64,000 nt of DNA from an uncultured delta proteobacterium (GTDB taxonomy: Bacteria; Desulfobacterota; Syntrophobacteria; Syntrophobacterales; Syntrophobacteraceae): NCBI GenBank assembly GCA_963808625.1, contig CAWEHK010000026.1, positions 10,228-74,227 on the forward strand, read 5' to 3'. This document shows, piece by piece, positions 36,057-47,729 of this stretch. Under the pieces are notes generated by a model. The model was given only the letters and a program-made list of their open reading frames with translations, had not been told where the DNA came from and did no database searches. Within the stretch, counting starts at the first letter, position 1. Each line of letters starts with the position of its first letter. The translations under genes and the position numbers were made by a program.

Positions 36057-38036
36057 TCAAGGCACCCGGTTCATAACCAGGTCCACCTTGGCTTTGGGCC
36101 TGACCATTGCTTCCATGCCGGAAGATACGGTAACCGGTTTTCCCGCGGGCTGCAATTTCGTCTGAATCCCAGGAGACACCGGACCCTTTGAGGCCGCCTT
36201 GTCCTCCCTTGCGGGCGCGCCAGCAGGTCCCCCCGGGCTCTTCTTTACTGCGGCCGTGGTCGTTTTCGTCGCCTTGTTGTGGGTGGCGCTTGCCGTATGG
36301 ACTCCTGGGGGCAGCGAGGGGGTGCCTGCGGCGGGAAATACTCCGAGATAAGGTAGGGCCCTGGCGGCAATGTTTCGGAACACCGGCGCCGCAACTACGC
36401 CCCCATAAATAGCGCCGTGGGGTTCATGGATGACCACGCTAATCGCCAAGCGGGGCCGATCTGCCGGAATAAAGCCGGTAAAAATGGAAGTATATTTGCT
36501 CGAGGCATAGTGCCTTGTTTGCGGATCCAAGACCTGAGCCGTACCCGTCTTCCCCGCAGCAGCGTACCCTTCCGGGGCCGCCTTCACTCCCGTCCCACCT
36601 TCCTGCGTAACAGACCCATCATATCACAAATCTGCTTCGCTGTCTTTTGCTGAATCACTCGCCGGAACGGCCTGGTATGAAGCGGTTCGTAACTTTCGCC
36701 CTGACCGTCGAGGATTTGCTTTACAATAATTGGTTGACCGATTTCTCCGCCATTGGCGAGAGCTGCCATCCCCGTGGTGAGCTGCAGCGAGGTCACGCCA
36801 ATGCTCTGGCCAAAACCTGTGGTCGCGAGATCGATTGGGCGCCATTTCTTGCCCGACCGCACCAGACCCCGGACTTCACCCGGAAGCGCGATGCCCGTCC
36901 TCGAGCCGAAACCAAACCCTTTAATGTAGCTTGTAGAAGCGCTCACTTCCCAACTGCAGCGCGATCTTACTGGCCGCAATGTTGCTCGAATATTTGATCA
37001 CTTCCGGCATGGTAAGCCACCCATACGGGTGGACATCATTGATGGTATGACCGGCGAGTTGGATTTTCCCGTTTTCGCAGAAGATGCGATCGCGCTCCTT
37101 GACCGTTCCCTCCTCGAGGGCCGCACTCATAAGAAAAATCTTGAAGGTGGAACCGGGTTCAAAGGAATCCGTAATCGTGCGGTTGCGCCAGACCTCGGCA
37201 CTGCTCTTGTTGCTCAGGTTCGGATCAAAGGGCGGCCAGTTGGCCATCGCCAGCACTTCAAAGGTCCGCGTGTCCAGAACCACGACTTCTCCTGCCCTGG
37301 CTCGATATTGATGCACCGCCTTCTCGAGTTCATATTCGGCCAGGTACTGGACAAACGCATCCAATGTCAGGCGCACGCCGAAATTTTCCATCGGCTCCGG
37401 CGGCGGTGCGGAGTCCAGCCAGAGGCATTTCCTGATGCCATCCCGGACCTGACCAACGGCTGCAATATTCTCTCGCAGAAGCTGGTCGAAGCCCTTTTCA
37501 ACCCCTTCCAGGCCGGTCCCATCCACGCCGACAAAACCCAGGACCTGACCGCCCACCTGCCCGTAAGGATAAAATCGCTTATACTCGTCTACCAGGTTCA
37601 GACCCGGTTGCTTCAGGCGCTCGACAGCGATGGCCTGCTGGTCGGTGAGGTGGCGCTTGAGCCAGACAAAATGGCGCGAGCACGATAGTTTTCCGGCAAT
37701 GAACGATTCACTCTCATCCAGGACCGGGGCCAGGTGGGCCGCCAGCCGACCGGGAGCGTCCACCATCCCGGCATCGACAAAAAGGGATCGCTGGGGTACG
37801 GAAAAAGAGAGGAGGCGCCCCTGGCAGTCATAGATGGAACCCCGATAAGTTGGCACGCGAATGGTCGTTTCCGTCTGATTTATTGCTCTTTCCAACCAGA
37901 GGGGATGTTCAATGATCTGCAATCGGGAAGCCCGCGCAAGGATGACGCAGAAGCCCAGGATGACCAGCGTGTTGAAAAAGACATAGTAGGACGAGTAACG
38001 AGCACTTCGGTACCTGCCAGGGTTGCGCCTCTCCAC
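36057..38036 (-). CDS. ftsI: Penicillin-binding protein 3 (frameshifts near 36920 and 36605)
   Basis: RGSIYD, SxxK (GSTFK), SxN (SSN), KTG (GKTGTAQ). Confidence 0.92.
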
Positions 38037-41786: not shown

Positions 41787-42248
41787 TCAGAGCGAAGCGT
41801 CGTAGACAGACGTCCGCAGCCCCTGCTTCTGAGCATAACCACGAAGGATCGCCCGTTCGGTGCCACGGGTCAGGTCATACCGGGACAATGACGAGATGGG
41901 AACGAAGGCGCATGCCAGGACATCACTGGCGGGAGCGGGTTCCCCAGCGTTGCACTCACAGAGAAAATCAAGAAGAATATAATGGTATTCGATGGTTCCG
42001 GCCTGATCCAGGATTACCCGATCCAATGCCACCACCAGATCACGGACCTGAACCTCGAGCCCGACTTCCTCCTTGACTTCGCGCACGACCGCTTCCTGCA
42101 GCGATTCCCCCAGTTCGACCAAGCCCCCCGGAACTGACCACTTCCCGGCAGACGGCTCGGTTCCCCGCTGGATTAGAAGCACCTCGTCATCGCGGAAAAT
42201 GATCGCCCCGACACCAACCAGAGGTCGTTCGGGATAACGCCGATTCAT
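41787..42248 (-). CDS. NUDIX hydrolase
   Basis: Nudix box [24 protein letters not shown]. Confidence 0.92.
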
Positions 42249-42307
42249 GCGGTCTTGCCTCCAACTTCAGGGCAGCATCCGGCAGCCATGCACCGGGAAA
42301 AGAACCT

Positions 42308-42435
42308 CACCGCGGAGACGCAGAGGACGCCGAGAGAAAAAGAGCATCCAAATCGTGTCACCTATTGCCCGAAACAAGCGTAATCTGCAATCCAAAATCC
42401 AACGTTCTTCTCCGCGAACTCCGCGTCTCCGCGTG
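42308..42435. repeat. CTCTGCG-type inverted repeat element with short internal heptamers
   Basis: CACCGCGGAGACGCAGAGGACGCCGAGAG ... CTCCGCGAACTCCGCGTCTCCGCGTG; AATCTGC/AATCCAA units between the arms. Confidence 0.7.
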
Positions 42436-42451
42436 CGAAAAAAGAAGGATG

Positions 42452-43123
42452 TCACGGCTTACAGTAACGACACGGGCGATAGCCCTGCTCCAGCCCCGTC
42501 CAACGATCCGGGAAATGGATCCTGGCCCTGGTGGCGACCTTTTTTCCCAAGGCACATTCGGAGCGATGAAAGACAAAACTCCTCCGGTTTCCGAGGTAGG
42601 CCTTTGCCGGCACCACCGGACATCTACCCCACATGCCCTGGCGTTGATGGATTGCCTCCCGCTGGTACCGAAGGAATTCCTCCAAGCGTCTGAAGTTCTT
42701 GGATGTTCTATAGACATAGGCAGAACCCGCGCGCAGCATTTCGAGGTTCGCACACCCGCCATCCGGCAAAATCACGTAAGCCAGGAAGCGACCGTGAGGA
42801 TCGAGCACCTCACGCTCATATTGCAGCGACACCTGTTTATGGAGCACCAGGTCGCTGTTCATCCTCTTCGCCTCATCCCCGAAACAGTCTGCTTTGGCCC
42901 TGCCATGAGCCACCTCGGGCGCGTCGACGCCCAGGTAGCGGATCTTTTCGCCGCTATCCAGGATAATGGTATCCCCATCGCAGACCACAACCACCTTACC
43001 GGAACTCGGAGGGACACGCCCCCAACATGAAGCGGGTGTTCCCTGCAGGGCGGTCATCAGCAGAATGATCAGCCAGCACTTCAGAATCGTGAGGCTTCGT
43101 TGACCGACGCTATTCCCGGGCAT
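42452..43123 (-). CDS. Thermonuclease (SNase) with a C-terminal Ada-type Zn-binding domain, exported
   Basis: DGDTI, IRYLGVDAPE, DPHGRFLAYV, FHRSEC...GYRPCRYCKP. Confidence 0.88.
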   Translation of the reverse strand: MPGNSVGQRSLTILKCWLIILLMTALQGTPASCWGRVPPSSGKVVVVCDGDTIILDSGEKIRYLGVDAPEVAHGRAKADCFGDEAKRMNSDLVLHKQVSLQYEREVLDPHGRFLAYVILPDGGCANLEMLRAGSAYVYRTSKNFRRLEEFLRYQREAIHQRQGMWGRCPVVPAKAYLGNRRSFVFHRSECALGKKVATRARIHFPDRWTGLEQGYRPCRYCKP

Positions 43124-43224
43124 GCGCCATTTCCCTTTCTAACAACGCACTGTTTTTGGCTGCTCTTCCGCCCTCGAGCCAAGAGGAGGCTTTCTGCGGA
43201 TAAGTCGGTGAAAGCTCCCCTTTG

Positions 43225-43390
43225 AAGACTATCTCAAAACTGGCTTACCCCGTAACCCCGGCGGAAGCCGGGGTCCAGAATCCCCCTAGGAACCTGAATC
43301 CCTACGAAAACCTGGATTCCGGCTTTCGCCGGAATGACGTTCAATGGCGTTTTGACCATAATGGCGTTTTGACCATCTTGAGACAGTTCC
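43225..43390. mobile_element. MITE-like element (GAGACTATCTCA family) abutting the alaC stop codon
   Basis: AAGACTATCTCAAAA...TTGAGACAGTTCC; internal REP doublet and short internal duplications (AATGGCGTTTTGACCAT x2). Confidence 0.85.
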
Positions 43391-44602
43391 TTAGACTTCG
43401 TCTTTGGCGGGCTTGGCGCGCATAAACTTCCCCATCTGGCGCAGGGCCTGGCGAAGTCTGTGTTCATTTTCCACCAGCGCCAACCGCAGGTAGCCTTCCC
43501 CTTCCTCGCCGAAGCCAATGCCGGGAGCAACCGCCACATTCGCTTCATCCATGAGTTTAATCGCAAAGGGCATAGAACCCATCTGGTCAAAGGGAGCGGG
43601 GATTTTGGCCCAAACGAACATGCCCGCTTTGGGCACGGTCACCGGCCAGCCGAGGCGCCGGAGTCCCCGGCAAAGGACATCGCGGCGCTGCTCATAAATC
43701 CTTGCCTGTTCCACGACCTCCGTGGCGCAATCCCGCAGCGCGACGATGCCCGCGATCTGAATGGCCGAAAAGATACCATAATCATAGTATCCCTTGATCT
43801 TGGCCAGCCCCTGAATGATTTCCTTATTCCCCACGCAATACCCAACGCGCCATCCTGCCATATTGTATGACTTGGAAAAAGAACCAAATTCAACACCGAC
43901 GTCCCTGGCCCCCGGCACCTGGAGGAAGCTTGGTGCGGTATAGCCATCGAAGGTGATCTTGGCATAGGCGAAATCATGAATGATCATGAAGCGGTATTTC
44001 CTGGCCAAAGCAACGATCTCTTGAAAAAGTTCGGTGCTGGCCACGGTCGCCGTGGGATTATGGGGGTAGTTCAGGATCAACACCTTCGGGGTCGGATAGA
44101 GCGACTCGCACATGGTCGCAATGCGCGCCAGGAAGGTCTCTTCACTGGCCAGGGGGATGCGAATGACATTGCCGCCGGCAATGATGGTGGCATAGACATG
44201 AATGGGAAAGGCCGGCGTCGGCACCAGGACCGTGTCTCCGGGTCCGACCAGGGCCAAACACAGGTGCGAAATCCCCTCCTTGGAGCCAATGGTGCAGAGG
44301 ACTTCCGTCTCAATATCCAGTTCCACGCCATAGTCCCGGCCATAGAATTGGGCAATTTCCCGACGCAGGCTGCGCAGTCCCGAAGCCACCGGATAGCGGT
44401 GACTCTTGGGGTCTTGCACCACTTCGCAGAGTTTCTGGGTCACCGCTTCGGGGGCGGGGTCGATCGGGTTACCCATCCCCAGGTCAATGACGTCGTGCCC
44501 CTGCGAACGTTTTTCCATCCTCATTTTATTGATCATCCCAAAAAGATACGGCGGCAATTGCTCCATGCGCTGGGCAAAGCGGATAATTGCATCTCCGGTC
44601 AT
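43391..44602 (-). CDS. alaC: Class I/II aminotransferase, AlaC (glutamate-pyruvate) type
   Basis: LPPYLF, DLGMGNP, TIGSKEG, PIHVY, SKSYNMAGWRVG, KGYYDYG, VWAKIP, APGIGFG closely follow E. coli AlaC/YfdZ as I recall it. Confidence 0.8.
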   Translation of the reverse strand: MTGDAIIRFAQRMEQLPPYLFGMINKMRMEKRSQGHDVIDLGMGNPIDPAPEAVTQKLCEVVQDPKSHRYPVASGLRSLRREIAQFYGRDYGVELDIETEVLCTIGSKEGISHLCLALVGPGDTVLVPTPAFPIHVYATIIAGGNVIRIPLASEETFLARIATMCESLYPTPKVLILNYPHNPTATVASTELFQEIVALARKYRFMIIHDFAYAKITFDGYTAPSFLQVPGARDVGVEFGSFSKSYNMAGWRVGYCVGNKEIIQGLAKIKGYYDYGIFSAIQIAGIVALRDCATEVVEQARIYEQRRDVLCRGLRRLGWPVTVPKAGMFVWAKIPAPFDQMGSMPFAIKLMDEANVAVAPGIGFGEEGEGYLRLALVENEHRLRQALRQMGKFMRAKPAKDEV

Positions 44603-44643
44603 GACTGTTTCCTCCTGTCTGCCTGTCTTGCTCCCGGTCAACC

Positions 44644-44677
44644 AAAAAGAAAACCCCAGGCCGCTTGGCCCGGGGCT
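44644..44677 (-). terminator. Intrinsic terminator (attenuator) in the alaC leader
   Basis: AGCCCCGGGCC-AAGC-GGCCTGGGGTT followed by TTCTTTTT, about 40 nt before the alaC start. Confidence 0.8.
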
Positions 44678-44731
44678 CAACGATGCCTTAGGCCGGCGGT
44701 TCAGCCCAAGGCTTTCGGTGGGTGCCTGCGG

Positions 44732-44815
44732 TTAATGAAACTCCAAGGCGCCAACCCTCACCCAGGCTATCCTGGCGGCGGCGGCCCATGCGATCGGTTT
44801 TGGAAAAGAGGTCAT
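44732..44815 (-). CDS. Putative Ala-rich leader peptide MTSFPKPIAWAAAARIAWVRVGALEFH
   Basis: 27 codons, RBS AAGGA upstream, GCC x4 in tandem, 7 Ala in total; lies between the promoter and the terminator. Confidence 0.65.
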   Translation of the reverse strand: MTSFPKPIAWAAAARIAWVRVGALEFH

Positions 44816-44847
44816 CACTATTCTGTTCCTTTTGTTCTTTTTTATCA

Positions 44848-44876
44848 TTTTTACTGAATATTGAAGGCCTTGTCAA
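44848..44876 (-). promoter_or_regulatory. Sigma70 promoter for leader-alaC
   Basis: TTGACA-N17-TAAAAA(T). Confidence 0.65.
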
Positions 44877-45047
44877 TGAGCACATCGCATACCCCGCACT
44901 CACTTTTTGCGCCACCTCGAGCACTTTTTCTTGCCCTTCGGGTCGTTTTTATGTCTTATTCAGAAACACACAGGAGGAATGAACCTTGGATCATAGCGTT
45001 TTGACTGGATTGCCGATGGTCTTGCTCCATAGTTGGGAAGGGAATTT

Positions 45048-45506
45048 ATGATCGATAGACCGAAAAAATTCCTACTGCTCATCGCGCTGGCCCTCGCCGT
45101 GGCAGCGCTTGTCTCCAATGTGTTTGCGCAAGTCGCAGAGCACATCATTGCCCAGGCTGCGGAATCTGCTGAATCAGCACAAAGACCAAAACTGAGCCAC
45201 GCCACCATGTGCGAAAGGGTCGATAACCTCAGCCCGACGCGAGCCGGCATCGTCTTTTCGGTCGCTAACGGCCAGGTTTGCTGTTATTCGTCATTTGATC
45301 CCGTGCCTCAGCCTACACTCATCTACCACCGCTGGTTCCACCGTGATGAATTGAGTACGCAGACCAGGCTGAGGGTGTATCCACCCAAATGGTCCACCTA
45401 TAGCGTGATCCAGCTTCGGGAAACCGACAAAGGACCCTGGCGGGTGGAGATTACCGATCAGAACGGCCGGATCTTCAGTGTCCTGCGTTTCAGCATCACT
45501 GACTAG
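45048..45506 (+). CDS. Exported DUF2914-like protein
   Basis: Signal peptide; IYHRWF...WSTYS...GPWRVEITD pattern. Confidence 0.75.
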   Translation: MIDRPKKFLLLIALALAVAALVSNVFAQVAEHIIAQAAESAESAQRPKLSHATMCERVDNLSPTRAGIVFSVANGQVCCYSSFDPVPQPTLIYHRWFHRDELSTQTRLRVYPPKWSTYSVIQLRETDKGPWRVEITDQNGRIFSVLRFSITD

Positions 45507-45534
45507 CCCTCGACTTATCTCGTGATTCTATGCC

Positions 45535-46986
45535 ATGACAAGTTTTATCAAGTTTCTTTCAACCATTCGCTGGCAAGACCTGGTGGATATCATCATCAAC
45601 AGCTATATCCTTTTCCGCGTCTATGTCCTCTTTCACGGCACCAATGCCTTTCGTGTGCTGGTTGGTATAGCCTCGCTCTGGATCCTGCAGGAGGTGGCGG
45701 CGTCCATGGGTCTGATTCTGACCAGTTGGGCGGTGCGAGGCATAACTACTGCCGCCGCGGTTATCATCATCGTCGTGTTCCGAAATGAGATCCGGTCCGC
45801 CCTCCAGGTTCGAAATCTTAAGACTTTTATCTGGGGGTCCCCCATCAGGGAACAGGCAACGCCTGTCGACATCGTGGTGCAAACAGTCTTCCAGATGGGC
45901 AAGAAGCGAATTGGCGCGCTGCTCGTTTTTCCCGGGAAAGAAGATCTGGGAGAGGACGTTCACGGGGGTATTGCCTGGTACGGAACGGTCTCAGCGGAGA
46001 TGCTGCTGAGCATATTTTGGCCGAACAACCCGGTTCATGACGGCGCCTGCATCATCCGCGGCGACCAGATCGTCGAAGTGGGAGTGCTCTTGCCACTGTC
46101 CCAGCGAACGGACCTGCCCTCATATTACGGGACCAGGCATCGGGCAGCGCTCGGCCTGGCGGAACGAAGCGATGCCCTCGTGGTGGTGGTCTCGGAAGAG
46201 CGCGGACGGGTGACCGCAGCCAAAGGCAACACGCTTATCCCGTTCAGCGAGCCGGAAGAATTGTCAAAGCTCATCAAACGGCACCTTAACCTTGACGACG
46301 GAGTTCCCACAAATGTGCAGAAACGGGAACGCTTAAGACTCTCCTTCGCCGCCATCCTGTCTTTCCTGATCATGACCGGCATCTGGTTCGGGTTCACCAG
46401 AAGCCAGGATACCATCATTGCCCTGAACGTCCCGATTGAGTACATCAACCGTCCGCTCGCCTATGAAATCCTGGACACTTCAACCGATGAGGCCCGCCTC
46501 CAGCTCTACGGCTCGAGCGCCCTGATCAAATCGCTGCAGCCGGGGCAGGTCCTGGTGCGCGTAGACCTTGACAAGGCCGTGGAAGGAAAGAATGTGTTTC
46601 CGATCACCCAGGACAATATCGTCCTGCCTCCGGGTGTGTTTCTCAATAAGGTACAGCCGTCCAATATCGATGTCAATCTTGATGCTCCGGTCACCAAGGA
46701 ACTGCCGGTTCAGGTTGACTGGGCGGGAAAGCTGCCGGAAAACCTGAACCTGGTGAAGGTCAGTGTGACCCCCGAAACCGTAAAGGTCATCGGCGGCAGC
46801 CAAATCCTCGAACACGTCGGCACCATCTACACGGCACCGGTGCGCCTGGATAGTCTGCCCAAAACGGGACCCGTCACCACCACCCTGGTCCTCACCCCGC
46901 CATCTCTGAAATTGATTTCGAATGCAACGGAAAAGGTTACCGTCAATTATGTGTTGGACGGGAAGACCAATGGTGAGAAAAAATGA
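45535..46986 (+). CDS. cdaA: Diadenylate cyclase CdaA fused to YbbR (CdaR-like) domains
   Basis: Three N-terminal TMs, DAC motifs HDGA and GTRHRAA, VSEERG, then a TM and two beta-rich YbbR-like repeats. Confidence 0.88.
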   Translation: MTSFIKFLSTIRWQDLVDIIINSYILFRVYVLFHGTNAFRVLVGIASLWILQEVAASMGLILTSWAVRGITTAAAVIIIVVFRNEIRSALQVRNLKTFIWGSPIREQATPVDIVVQTVFQMGKKRIGALLVFPGKEDLGEDVHGGIAWYGTVSAEMLLSIFWPNNPVHDGACIIRGDQIVEVGVLLPLSQRTDLPSYYGTRHRAALGLAERSDALVVVVSEERGRVTAAKGNTLIPFSEPEELSKLIKRHLNLDDGVPTNVQKRERLRLSFAAILSFLIMTGIWFGFTRSQDTIIALNVPIEYINRPLAYEILDTSTDEARLQLYGSSALIKSLQPGQVLVRVDLDKAVEGKNVFPITQDNIVLPPGVFLNKVQPSNIDVNLDAPVTKELPVQVDWAGKLPENLNLVKVSVTPETVKVIGGSQILEHVGTIYTAPVRLDSLPKTGPVTTTLVLTPPSLKLISNATEKVTVNYVLDGKTNGEKK

Positions 46987-47040: not shown

Positions 47041-47280
47041 ATGAAGGAGAACAACCTGATGAAAAAGTTAAGCTTCGATGTCGAAGGGTTGACCGAAGAG
47101 CAGATAGAACTCGCCCGGCAGTTCATTGAGCTCATGAAGCGGGCCAAGGACCGGGAGAGAGCGTTCACGAATTTGAAAAGGCTGCTTGGAAAGGGTGCGA
47201 GGGGAGCCGAGCAAATCTCTGAGGAAGAGGCCAACAGGATCGCCGCTGAAGCCGCGGCTTATGCCAGGAAGAACCTGTGA
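47041..47280 (+). CDS. Putative antitoxin
   Basis: Small charged ORF whose stop overlaps the PIN gene start (GTGA). Confidence 0.6.
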   Translation: MKENNLMKKLSFDVEGLTEEQIELARQFIELMKRAKDRERAFTNLKRLLGKGARGAEQISEEEANRIAAEAAAYARKNL

Positions 47281-47729
47281 AGAAAGTCATTCTGAACACG
47301 AACATCATTATCAGTGCGCTGATAAGCCCGAAAGGCACACCCGGCAAGATTCTCGCTTTGGCCCTTCAAAAGAGATTTCGCCTGGTAAGTTCAGACCATC
47401 TTCTGGCCGAGTTAGGCAGGGCCTTGAAGTACGAACGAGTGACTGAAGCCCTTGCGCGCGCCCGAAAAGGATGGACGGAAAAGGACACTGCCGAATTCAT
47501 TCGCGACCTTAGAAAAGTATCCAGCCTTGTTCCCAGCAAACCTTTATCCGAAACGGTTTGCAAAGATCCGGACGACGACTGGCTCCTCTCCTGCGCGGTC
47601 CAATCAGGTGCATCGATCATCGTAAGTGGAGACAGAAACCTGACCGACCTGGTTAAATACAGACGCACTCGCATTATGGAAGCCAGGGCATTTTTAGACG
47701 AGTTGACTTCAAAAGATAGCCAAGTCTGA
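47277..47729 (+). CDS. PIN-domain putative toxin (TIGR00305-like)
   Basis: VILNTNIIISAL, LLAEL, CKDPDDDWLL, IVSGDRNL. Confidence 0.82.
   Translation: MKKVILNTNIIISALISPKGTPGKILALALQKRFRLVSSDHLLAELGRALKYERVTEALARARKGWTEKDTAEFIRDLRKVSSLVPSKPLSETVCKDPDDDWLLSCAVQSGASIIVSGDRNLTDLVKYRRTRIMEARAFLDELTSKDSQV

Follow-up and report, generated by a model that had tools for sequence, protein, structure and literature searches.

The window, a 64,000-nucleotide stretch of DNA from an uncultured delta proteobacterium, carries on its minus strand a gene for a class I/II PLP aminotransferase, preceded by a leader whose parts are listed in Table 1. The earlier note, written from the letters of this DNA, had described a promoter, a ribosome binding site (RBS), a 27-aa ORF with 7 Ala codons at 44815-44732, an 11-bp hairpin, a terminator and the gene, in that order on the minus strand, and the sequence agrees with this layout and its positions. 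For the promoter, proposed as TTGACA-N17-TAAAAAT, the -35 and the spacing are as described but the -10 is weak; transcription is predicted to start at about 44841. An in-frame GTG at 44818 would give a 28-codon leader ORF with better spacing from the Shine-Dalgarno (SD)-like site than the ATG start. The first hairpin (44712-44702/44695-44685) has the 11 bp described, two of them G-U. The terminator and its U-tract are present, but the stem, 44678-44651, was counted at 12 pairs, not 11. In what follows the RNA is divided into six segments: segment 1 is the Ala run, segment 2 lies in the ORF after the run, segments 3 and 4 are the arms of the first hairpin, and segments 5 and 6 are the arms of the terminator.

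Table 1. Features of the aminotransferase leader in the window, and two similar leaders elsewhere in the genome (positions with genome and contig handles).
Feature	Position	Strand	Remarks
Promoter-like site, sigma-70-type	44848..44876	-	-35 at 44876-44871, 17-nt spacer, weak -10 at 44853-44848
SD-like AAGGA of leader ORF	44827..44831	-	
Leader ORF	44732..44815	-	27 codons; Ala9, Trp10, Ala11-14; 7 Ala in total
Ala11-14 codon run (segment 1)	44774..44785	-	predicted stall site; Ala9 at 44791-44789
Segment 2, within leader ORF	44759..44770	-	would pair with segment 3 if ribosome-free; further helix extends inward
Segment 3, 5' arm of first hairpin	44702..44713	-	
Segment 4, 3' arm of first hairpin	44685..44695	-	segment 5 partner in predicted antiterminator
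Segment 5, 5' arm of terminator	44666..44678	-	
Segment 6, 3' arm of terminator, and U-tract	44644..44664	-	U-tract 44653-44644
RBS of aminotransferase gene	44611..44616	-	
Class I/II PLP aminotransferase, AlaC-related paralog, predicted alanine aminotransferase	43391..44602	-	403 aa; ATG 44602, stop 43391; PF00155
L192, two-hairpin RNA	G000:C52:44222-44325	-	Phe/Tyr-rich uORF about 235 nt before PaaK-like phenylacetate-CoA ligase
L195, Trp-run uORF, two hairpins with U-tracts	G000:C21:130822-130919	-	before DAHP synthase; weak match, E 0.37

After the aminotransferase gene, at 41787-43123 on the minus strand, come an SNase nuclease with an Ada-like zinc domain and a Nudix hydrolase, an arrangement common in the window's own taxonomic order. 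When 42 of the 47 next-downstream ORFs of related loci were scanned, they encoded a nuclease or Nudix protein in that order and varied products elsewhere, and none of the 42 was alanine-related. On the other side, at 45033-46986 on the plus strand, a divergent DUF2914 gene and a CdaA-like diadenylate cyclase gene with a YbbR domain have their promoter region in common with the attenuated gene; further on, 47277-47729 (plus strand) encodes a PIN-family toxin component of a toxin-antitoxin system, with TIGR00305 above its cut-off. An antisense open frame of 293 codons, 43976-44857 on the plus strand, runs across both the leader and the beginning of the aminotransferase gene and is probably a shadow frame.

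Taken from the window sequence alone, the leader parts are barely beyond chance. The window has 4 promoter-like sites against 1.9 +/- 1.6 in shuffled sequences and 3 terminator-like sites against 4.2 +/- 2.5; the leader folds with z = -2.07, equalled by 6 of 200 shuffles, and (GCN)4 occurs 934 times in the genome. A genome-wide search for short intergenic ORFs with four Ala codons gave 8 sites, a rough background only, as its filter excluded the window leader itself on account of the long antisense ORF. It is conservation that raises the leader above chance.

The earlier note had called the enzyme AlaC-type. PRK08175, alanine transaminase, is indeed its best NCBIfam match, but at 519 bits against a cut-off of 647, and the protein is below every NCBIfam cut-off. 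It is 49% identical over 388 aa to E. coli AlaC (NC_000913.3 b2379, glutamate-pyruvate aminotransferase), a member of the same broad subfamily, while a blastn search against E. coli gave no match; the best PDB match of the window enzyme is 2x5d, treated as Pseudomonas AlaC in a passage of PMC4094517. In a FastTree tree E. coli AlaC joins the group of a different paralog of this genome, the one ahead of the homoserine dehydrogenase gene (hom), with support of 87; this hom-linked paralog is 59% identical to E. coli AlaC and scores 636 bits with PRK08175. The window enzyme falls in a separate clade of 98 members (support 99) that adjoins Planctomycetota-type homologs, and is thus better described as an AlaC-related paralog outside the E. 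coli AlaC branch. A DapL-type enzyme, which the earlier note had named as a finding that would speak against its reading, is not what the scores indicate: 458 bits for LL-diaminopimelate aminotransferase TIGR03540 (cut-off 593) and 471 for PRK09276 (cut-off 507). Another paralog exceeds both DapL cut-offs and adjoins, by eye, lysA-, dapF-, dapA- and dapB-like ORFs, so that by neither score nor need does the window enzyme appear to be DapL. The separate DapL speaks for the attenuator reading, in which the enzyme is likely an alanine-forming aminotransferase.

Other alanine genes are present. Two alanine dehydrogenases pass the cut-off, and no AlaA homolog was found at E 1e-25 in this 85% complete genome. 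Upstream of the two ald genes, a split ald, alaS and two paralogs the longest Ala run is 1-2 codons. The alaS gene (G000:C21:74675-77255), one ald copy (G000:C24:90616-91741) and a penicillin-binding-protein-like gene (by eye, window 36057-38036) are each broken across reading frames, pointing to indel errors in the assembly.

Orthologs of the enzyme (E <= 1e-160) were found in 25 of 122 genomes of the class and in 70 of 401 genomes of a second order, and matches at 1e-150 in 9 of 401 genomes sampled across the phylum. Named records 68-93% identical to it come from Syntrophobacteraceae and Desulfobacterales-type bacteria; the next tier, at 55-60% identity, is mostly from Planctomycetota. The ortholog set numbered 98 after the removal of eight loci: five were duplicates, two had no usable 5' end, and L038 was mistaken for a duplicate. 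An RNA profile blind to the Ala codons, built from the hairpin region with the uORF omitted and seeded on 10 loci including the window, matched 70 of the 98 upstream regions (70/99 if L038, which has no leader, is counted), in Syntrophobacterales and Desulfobacterales-type genomes, and matched one of 80 more distant homologs, weakly. In 65 of the 70 RNA-positive orthologs a short closed ORF within 130 nt contains between four and seven Ala codons in succession, while no run of four Ala codons occurs in the 250 nt upstream of any of the 28 RNA-less orthologs. The alignment of alaC upstream regions that the earlier note had proposed as a check thus came out in its favour, with Ala run and hairpins conserved together.

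The other five of the 70 are exceptions. The Ala runs of L011 and L141 are interrupted; L150 has an eroded run and an intact terminator; L146 matches the RNA profile but has neither uORF nor terminator U-tract; and L041, where the match sits on an upstream terminator, was rejected as a false match. The RNA-less L174 has by eye a degenerate leader, with a short Ala-Ala-Ser-Ala run and diverged hairpins. L146, L150 and L174 are decaying leaders, and the joint absence of uORF and U-tract from L146 supports the attenuator reading. In L003, L004 and L005, which belong to the window's genus, about 195 nt corresponding exactly to the leader are deleted; the -35 is invariant in 8 same-genus rows including these three. 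This loss of the entire leader with promoter and RBS retained supports control by Ala-tRNA through attenuation. On the protein tree, the distribution of the leader requires at least 6 changes.

L041, L146 and L150 were omitted from the leader alignment, leaving 67 sequences. In all 67 an in-frame ATG or GTG lies 6-13 codons ahead of the Ala run, the ORFs being 17-33 aa long and 32% Ala; 50 have an SD-like 4-mer, and 62 have TTGAC 30-140 nt upstream of the run. Within the Ala run, codon positions 1 and 2 are fixed in 64-67 of the 67 rows and position 3 in only 36-53, and all four Ala codons are used (GCC 153, GCG 113, GCA 54, GCT 20). The Arg and Pro frames of this GC-rich run are unconserved, the wobble pattern fitting the Ala frame alone. 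Trp codons were also considered, the earlier note having listed one beside the alanines. They are not conserved as Trp in the 67-leader alignment, where the column holds several residues; the bases there are probably kept for pairing between segments 2 and 3.

The terminating helices 3:4 and 5:6 are paired in 88% and 89% of alignment cells, respectively. The alternative helices, 2:3 and 4:5, are together paired in 83.9% of cells, against 24-48% when the segments are slid, and show 96 double changes against 38.7 +/- 6.4 in shuffles, none of 500 of which reached 96. These shuffle controls ignore relatedness and the helices were picked from the same 67 sequences, so that the control is inflated because the leaders are related; single-base-pair tests on independent tree branches were underpowered, with p from 0.125 to 1 among the rows listed. 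Helix 4:5 alone is 86.6% paired, with double changes at 7 of its 10 pairs. Further, cognate duplexes are better than non-cognate ones by 3.0 kcal/mol for 2:3 (-18.3 vs -15.3) and by 3.5 kcal/mol for 4:5 (-16.0 vs -12.5), and 2:3 has an inner extension of at least 4 bp in 63 of 67 leaders, 11 bp in the window. Helix 1:2, the protector, is weak, with 70% of cells paired and no cognate advantage. The antiterminator drawn in the earlier note paired segment 3 with segment 5. That pairing exists in the window copy, at -17.3 kcal/mol, but in the family it is unsupported: 66.5% of cells are paired, there are 2 double changes, 393 of 500 shuffles do as well, and a cognate advantage is lacking. We therefore take 3:5 to be a probable peculiarity of the window copy. 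The covariation supports a his-like relay, in which 2:3 plus 4:5 would compete with 3:4 plus the terminator 5:6.

A U-tract follows 5:6 in 54 of the 67 leaders and 3:4 in 44; 33 leaders have both and 2 have neither. Where helix 3:4 has its own U-tract (44/67) it would be the first terminator. The seven related leaders L181-L187 have lost the distal U-tract and carry a long one on the first hairpin; because they retain only the first terminator, the conserved core is the choice between 2:3 and 3:4. The window copy has the distal terminator only.

Rfam offered no other identity for this RNA. The 7 matches in window 43000-46500 were all far below the gathering score and 14 related loci gave none, so the cmsearch that the earlier note had asked for turned up no leader family, riboswitch or T-box at gathering score. 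A covariance model built from segments 3-6, on the other hand, found similar two-hairpin RNAs ahead of other genes. A second site in the same genome (L192, E 9e-9) has a Phe/Tyr-rich uORF; the PaaK-like ligase behind it scores 624 bits on a truncated protein (cut-off 646), and the arrangement suggests aromatic amino acid control of a phenylacetate route. At E 0.01 some match occurs in 105 of 151 genomes of the phylum, many of them surely plain terminators. Among the 29 best loci besides the window, six precede TrpB-like genes (five with a Trp run), two precede TrpE (both with a Trp run), four precede LeuA (all Leu-rich) and six precede DAHP synthase (all Phe/Tyr-rich). Three PRK06836 aminotransferases, two likely binding proteins and one TPR-like protein make up six more, all Phe/Tyr-rich, and the remaining five loci precede nothing relevant. 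The TrpB-like, TrpE, LeuA and DAHP synthase assignments, 18 loci, are above NCBIfam cut-offs, and in 17 of them the uORF is rich in the matching residue, the peptides having been read by eye. None of six sister loci taken from the L196-L220 set has an Rfam match. Since leaders of the Trp, Phe/Tyr and Leu kinds stand before trp, aro and leu genes, the amino acid sensed can likely be read from the codon run, and the sister leaders likely serve as an internal control for the Ala run. A comparative survey of attenuators from 2010 reportedly covered delta-proteobacteria, and the Trp, Phe and Leu leaders may be among those it describes.

Leader-peptide attenuators of enterobacteria, including the six-segment his leader, are classical. 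The window family resembles the his leader in that a biosynthetic gene is preceded by a short ORF bearing a run of cognate codons and in that the position of the ribosome would choose between a terminator and a two-helix relay; it differs in its alanine codons, in its frequent two terminators and in its weak protector 1:2. As in trp/his-type attenuators, there is a predicted short translatable ORF, the control codons are kept as codons, an intrinsic terminator lies ahead of the structural gene, and a mutually exclusive antiterminator is conserved across relatives, the tree-independent test of this last point being underpowered. Alanine is also said, in a 1984 report, to affect attenuation of E. 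coli ilvB, though our literature search located no such report.

The earlier note did not know Ala-responsive attenuation as a textbook mechanism, but to call it unknown would be too strong: attenuation itself is textbook, and its tuning to alanine is already published, indirectly for whiB7 and as a proposal for Streptomyces alaS. In mycobacteria, according to the relevant passages of PMC10274678, whiB7 is preceded by an Ala-enriched uORF attenuator at which stalling leads to antitermination, with feedback involving the alanine enzyme aspC; 10.1101/2025.10.10.681568 concerns the same system. The two share the Ala-enriched uORF, antitermination upon stalling, and an outcome of more alanine aminotransferase. 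The whiB7 uORF, however, is long and mixed, responds to many stresses and targets a transcription factor, whereas the window family has a 17-33 aa ORF with one compact Ala run placed directly before the gene of the enzyme itself. A whiB7 system was accordingly rejected here, the downstream gene being the aminotransferase itself, with no WhiB7 factor. For Streptomyces lividans, passages of PMC8079986 propose alaL, ahead of alaS, as an alanine leader peptide of 22 aa with 6 Ala, and call it new for bacteria. Like the window leader it is a proposed Ala leader peptide, but it would control alanyl-tRNA synthetase, has no single central Ala run and belongs to another phylum, and those passages contain no covariation or functional test. 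In the openly accessible literature searched, supplements aside, no report turned up of an Ala leader for an alanine aminotransferase gene or from these bacteria; the main texts of PMC4833913 and PMC1262725 contain no alanine passage.

The proposed mechanism is as follows. With ample Ala-tRNA the ribosome would pass the Ala codons and cover segment 2, allowing 3:4 to form; segment 5 would then be free for segment 6, and transcription would stop at the U-tract, at about 44645. With Ala-tRNA scarce, the ribosome would stall on Ala9 to Ala13, leaving segment 2 free to pair with segment 3 as it emerges; formation of 2:3 would free segment 4 to capture segment 5, and the terminator would be blocked. 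These states were compared by equilibrium folding, which ignores kinetics, on transcripts cut off behind segment 5 and with the ribosome's 3' boundary placed 12 nt beyond the A site. A footprint over the Ala codons lets 2:3 form in all 67 leaders and 4:5 in 55; a ribosome placed at the stop codon leaves 4:5 in 3. Both changes are seen in 51 of 67 leaders, and in this model the family looks like a switch. Folding with and without a ribosome footprint, as the earlier note had proposed, thus gives switching for 51 of 67 family members but not for the window copy at equilibrium. Counting against the model, 2:3 also arises in 52 of 67 leaders when no ribosome is present and segment 4 has yet to emerge. 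Once the terminator is fully transcribed, 5:6 wins in 50 of 67 even with a stall, and therefore timing matters.

The behavior of the window copy raises the question of whether it has drifted, within an Ala-sensing family, to near-constant termination or to a relay in which 3:5 replaces 4:5. Its 2:3 duplex is among the weakest of the family (-11.4 against a median of -18.3 kcal/mol, rank 63 of 67) and its 3:5 duplex ranks 3 of 67, gaining weight when the footprint just covers segment 2. Folding favours the terminated over the antiterminated state (+4.0 kcal/mol for antiterminated relative to terminated, against a family median of -5.5; rank 64 of 67), 2:3 is lost once segment 4 is complete, and two codons rather than three separate the Ala run from segment 2; in three same-genus relatives, moreover, the leader is gone. 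Given only a distal terminator and a weak 2:3, kinetic trapping would be needed, or else this is a tighter variant. Against drift, every part is intact and 4:5 is at the family median (-15.8 against -16.0). Before segment 4 emerges, a ribosome stalled at Ala9-12 still leaves 2:3, with its inner extension, about 9 bp long, compared with 3.4 bp in ribosome-free folding. The closest relative, L002, is similarly imbalanced (+2.2), so that the imbalance has persisted, and equilibrium folding takes no account of kinetics. We consider a drifted copy unlikely, though of the alternatives it is the one that weighs most.

Less probable still is an attenuator that reads Ala codons in front of an enzyme that consumes alanine as amino donor or uses another substrate. 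The enzyme's place below every NCBIfam cut-off and apart from E. coli AlaC would allow this, as would the other alanine routes of the genome and the promiscuity of aminotransferases noted in part of PMC4094517. Induction on alanine shortage, however, suits an alanine-forming enzyme; AlaC is both the best family and the best PDB match, the DapL role is taken by another paralog, and in 17 of 18 sister loci the codon run fits what the downstream pathway produces. Very improbable, too, is a role of the Ala run as a sensor of translation stress in general or of chloramphenicol-type drugs, or its retention for GC-rich pairing alone. A penultimate alanine favours chloramphenicol stalling (a passage of 10.1101/2021.06.17.448903), the Ala-rich whiB7 uORF serves both roles according to parts of PMC10274678, and pairing between the run and the 3' portion of segment 2 is possible in 70% of cells. 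Yet the run uses all four kinds of Ala codon and varies at the wobble position only, 1:2 has no cognate advantage, sister leaders bear runs of other amino acids, and the gene downstream is a metabolic aminotransferase, with no resistance gene among the 42 next-downstream ORFs scanned.

In sum, a ribosome-mediated attenuator read through Ala codons, as the earlier note had proposed, has good support from the conservation of the run as codons and from covariation in the alternative helices. That the leader family is an Ala-codon attenuator is highly probable; for the window leader itself, we put at roughly 0.78 the probability that it is a conserved ribosome-mediated transcription attenuator that switches on a likely alanine-forming aminotransferase when charged alanyl-tRNA is scarce. 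Counting against this reading are the lack of equilibrium switching in the window copy, the weak 1:2 helix, the enzyme's score below the AlaC cut-off, and the presence of a closer AlaC homolog and two alanine dehydrogenases. More tentatively, at a little under an even chance, there may be one attenuator RNA chassis in the Desulfobacterota whose codon run has been swapped to Ala, Trp, Phe/Tyr or Leu. The Ala version would then be the first case of a leader peptide directly controlling an enzyme that forms alanine, and the run would name substrates of unassigned enzymes: alanine for the AlaC-related clade, aromatic amino acids for PRK06836, and a phenylacetate-to-phenylalanine route for the PaaK-like ligase. 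With the window leader, classical attenuation would reach alanine synthesis as well as syntrophic and sulfate-reducing bacteria. The 67 aligned variants, together with the deletions, eroded runs and one- and two-terminator forms, make its mechanism and evolution testable, and the leader may serve as a regulatory clue to the substrate of this aminotransferase clade.
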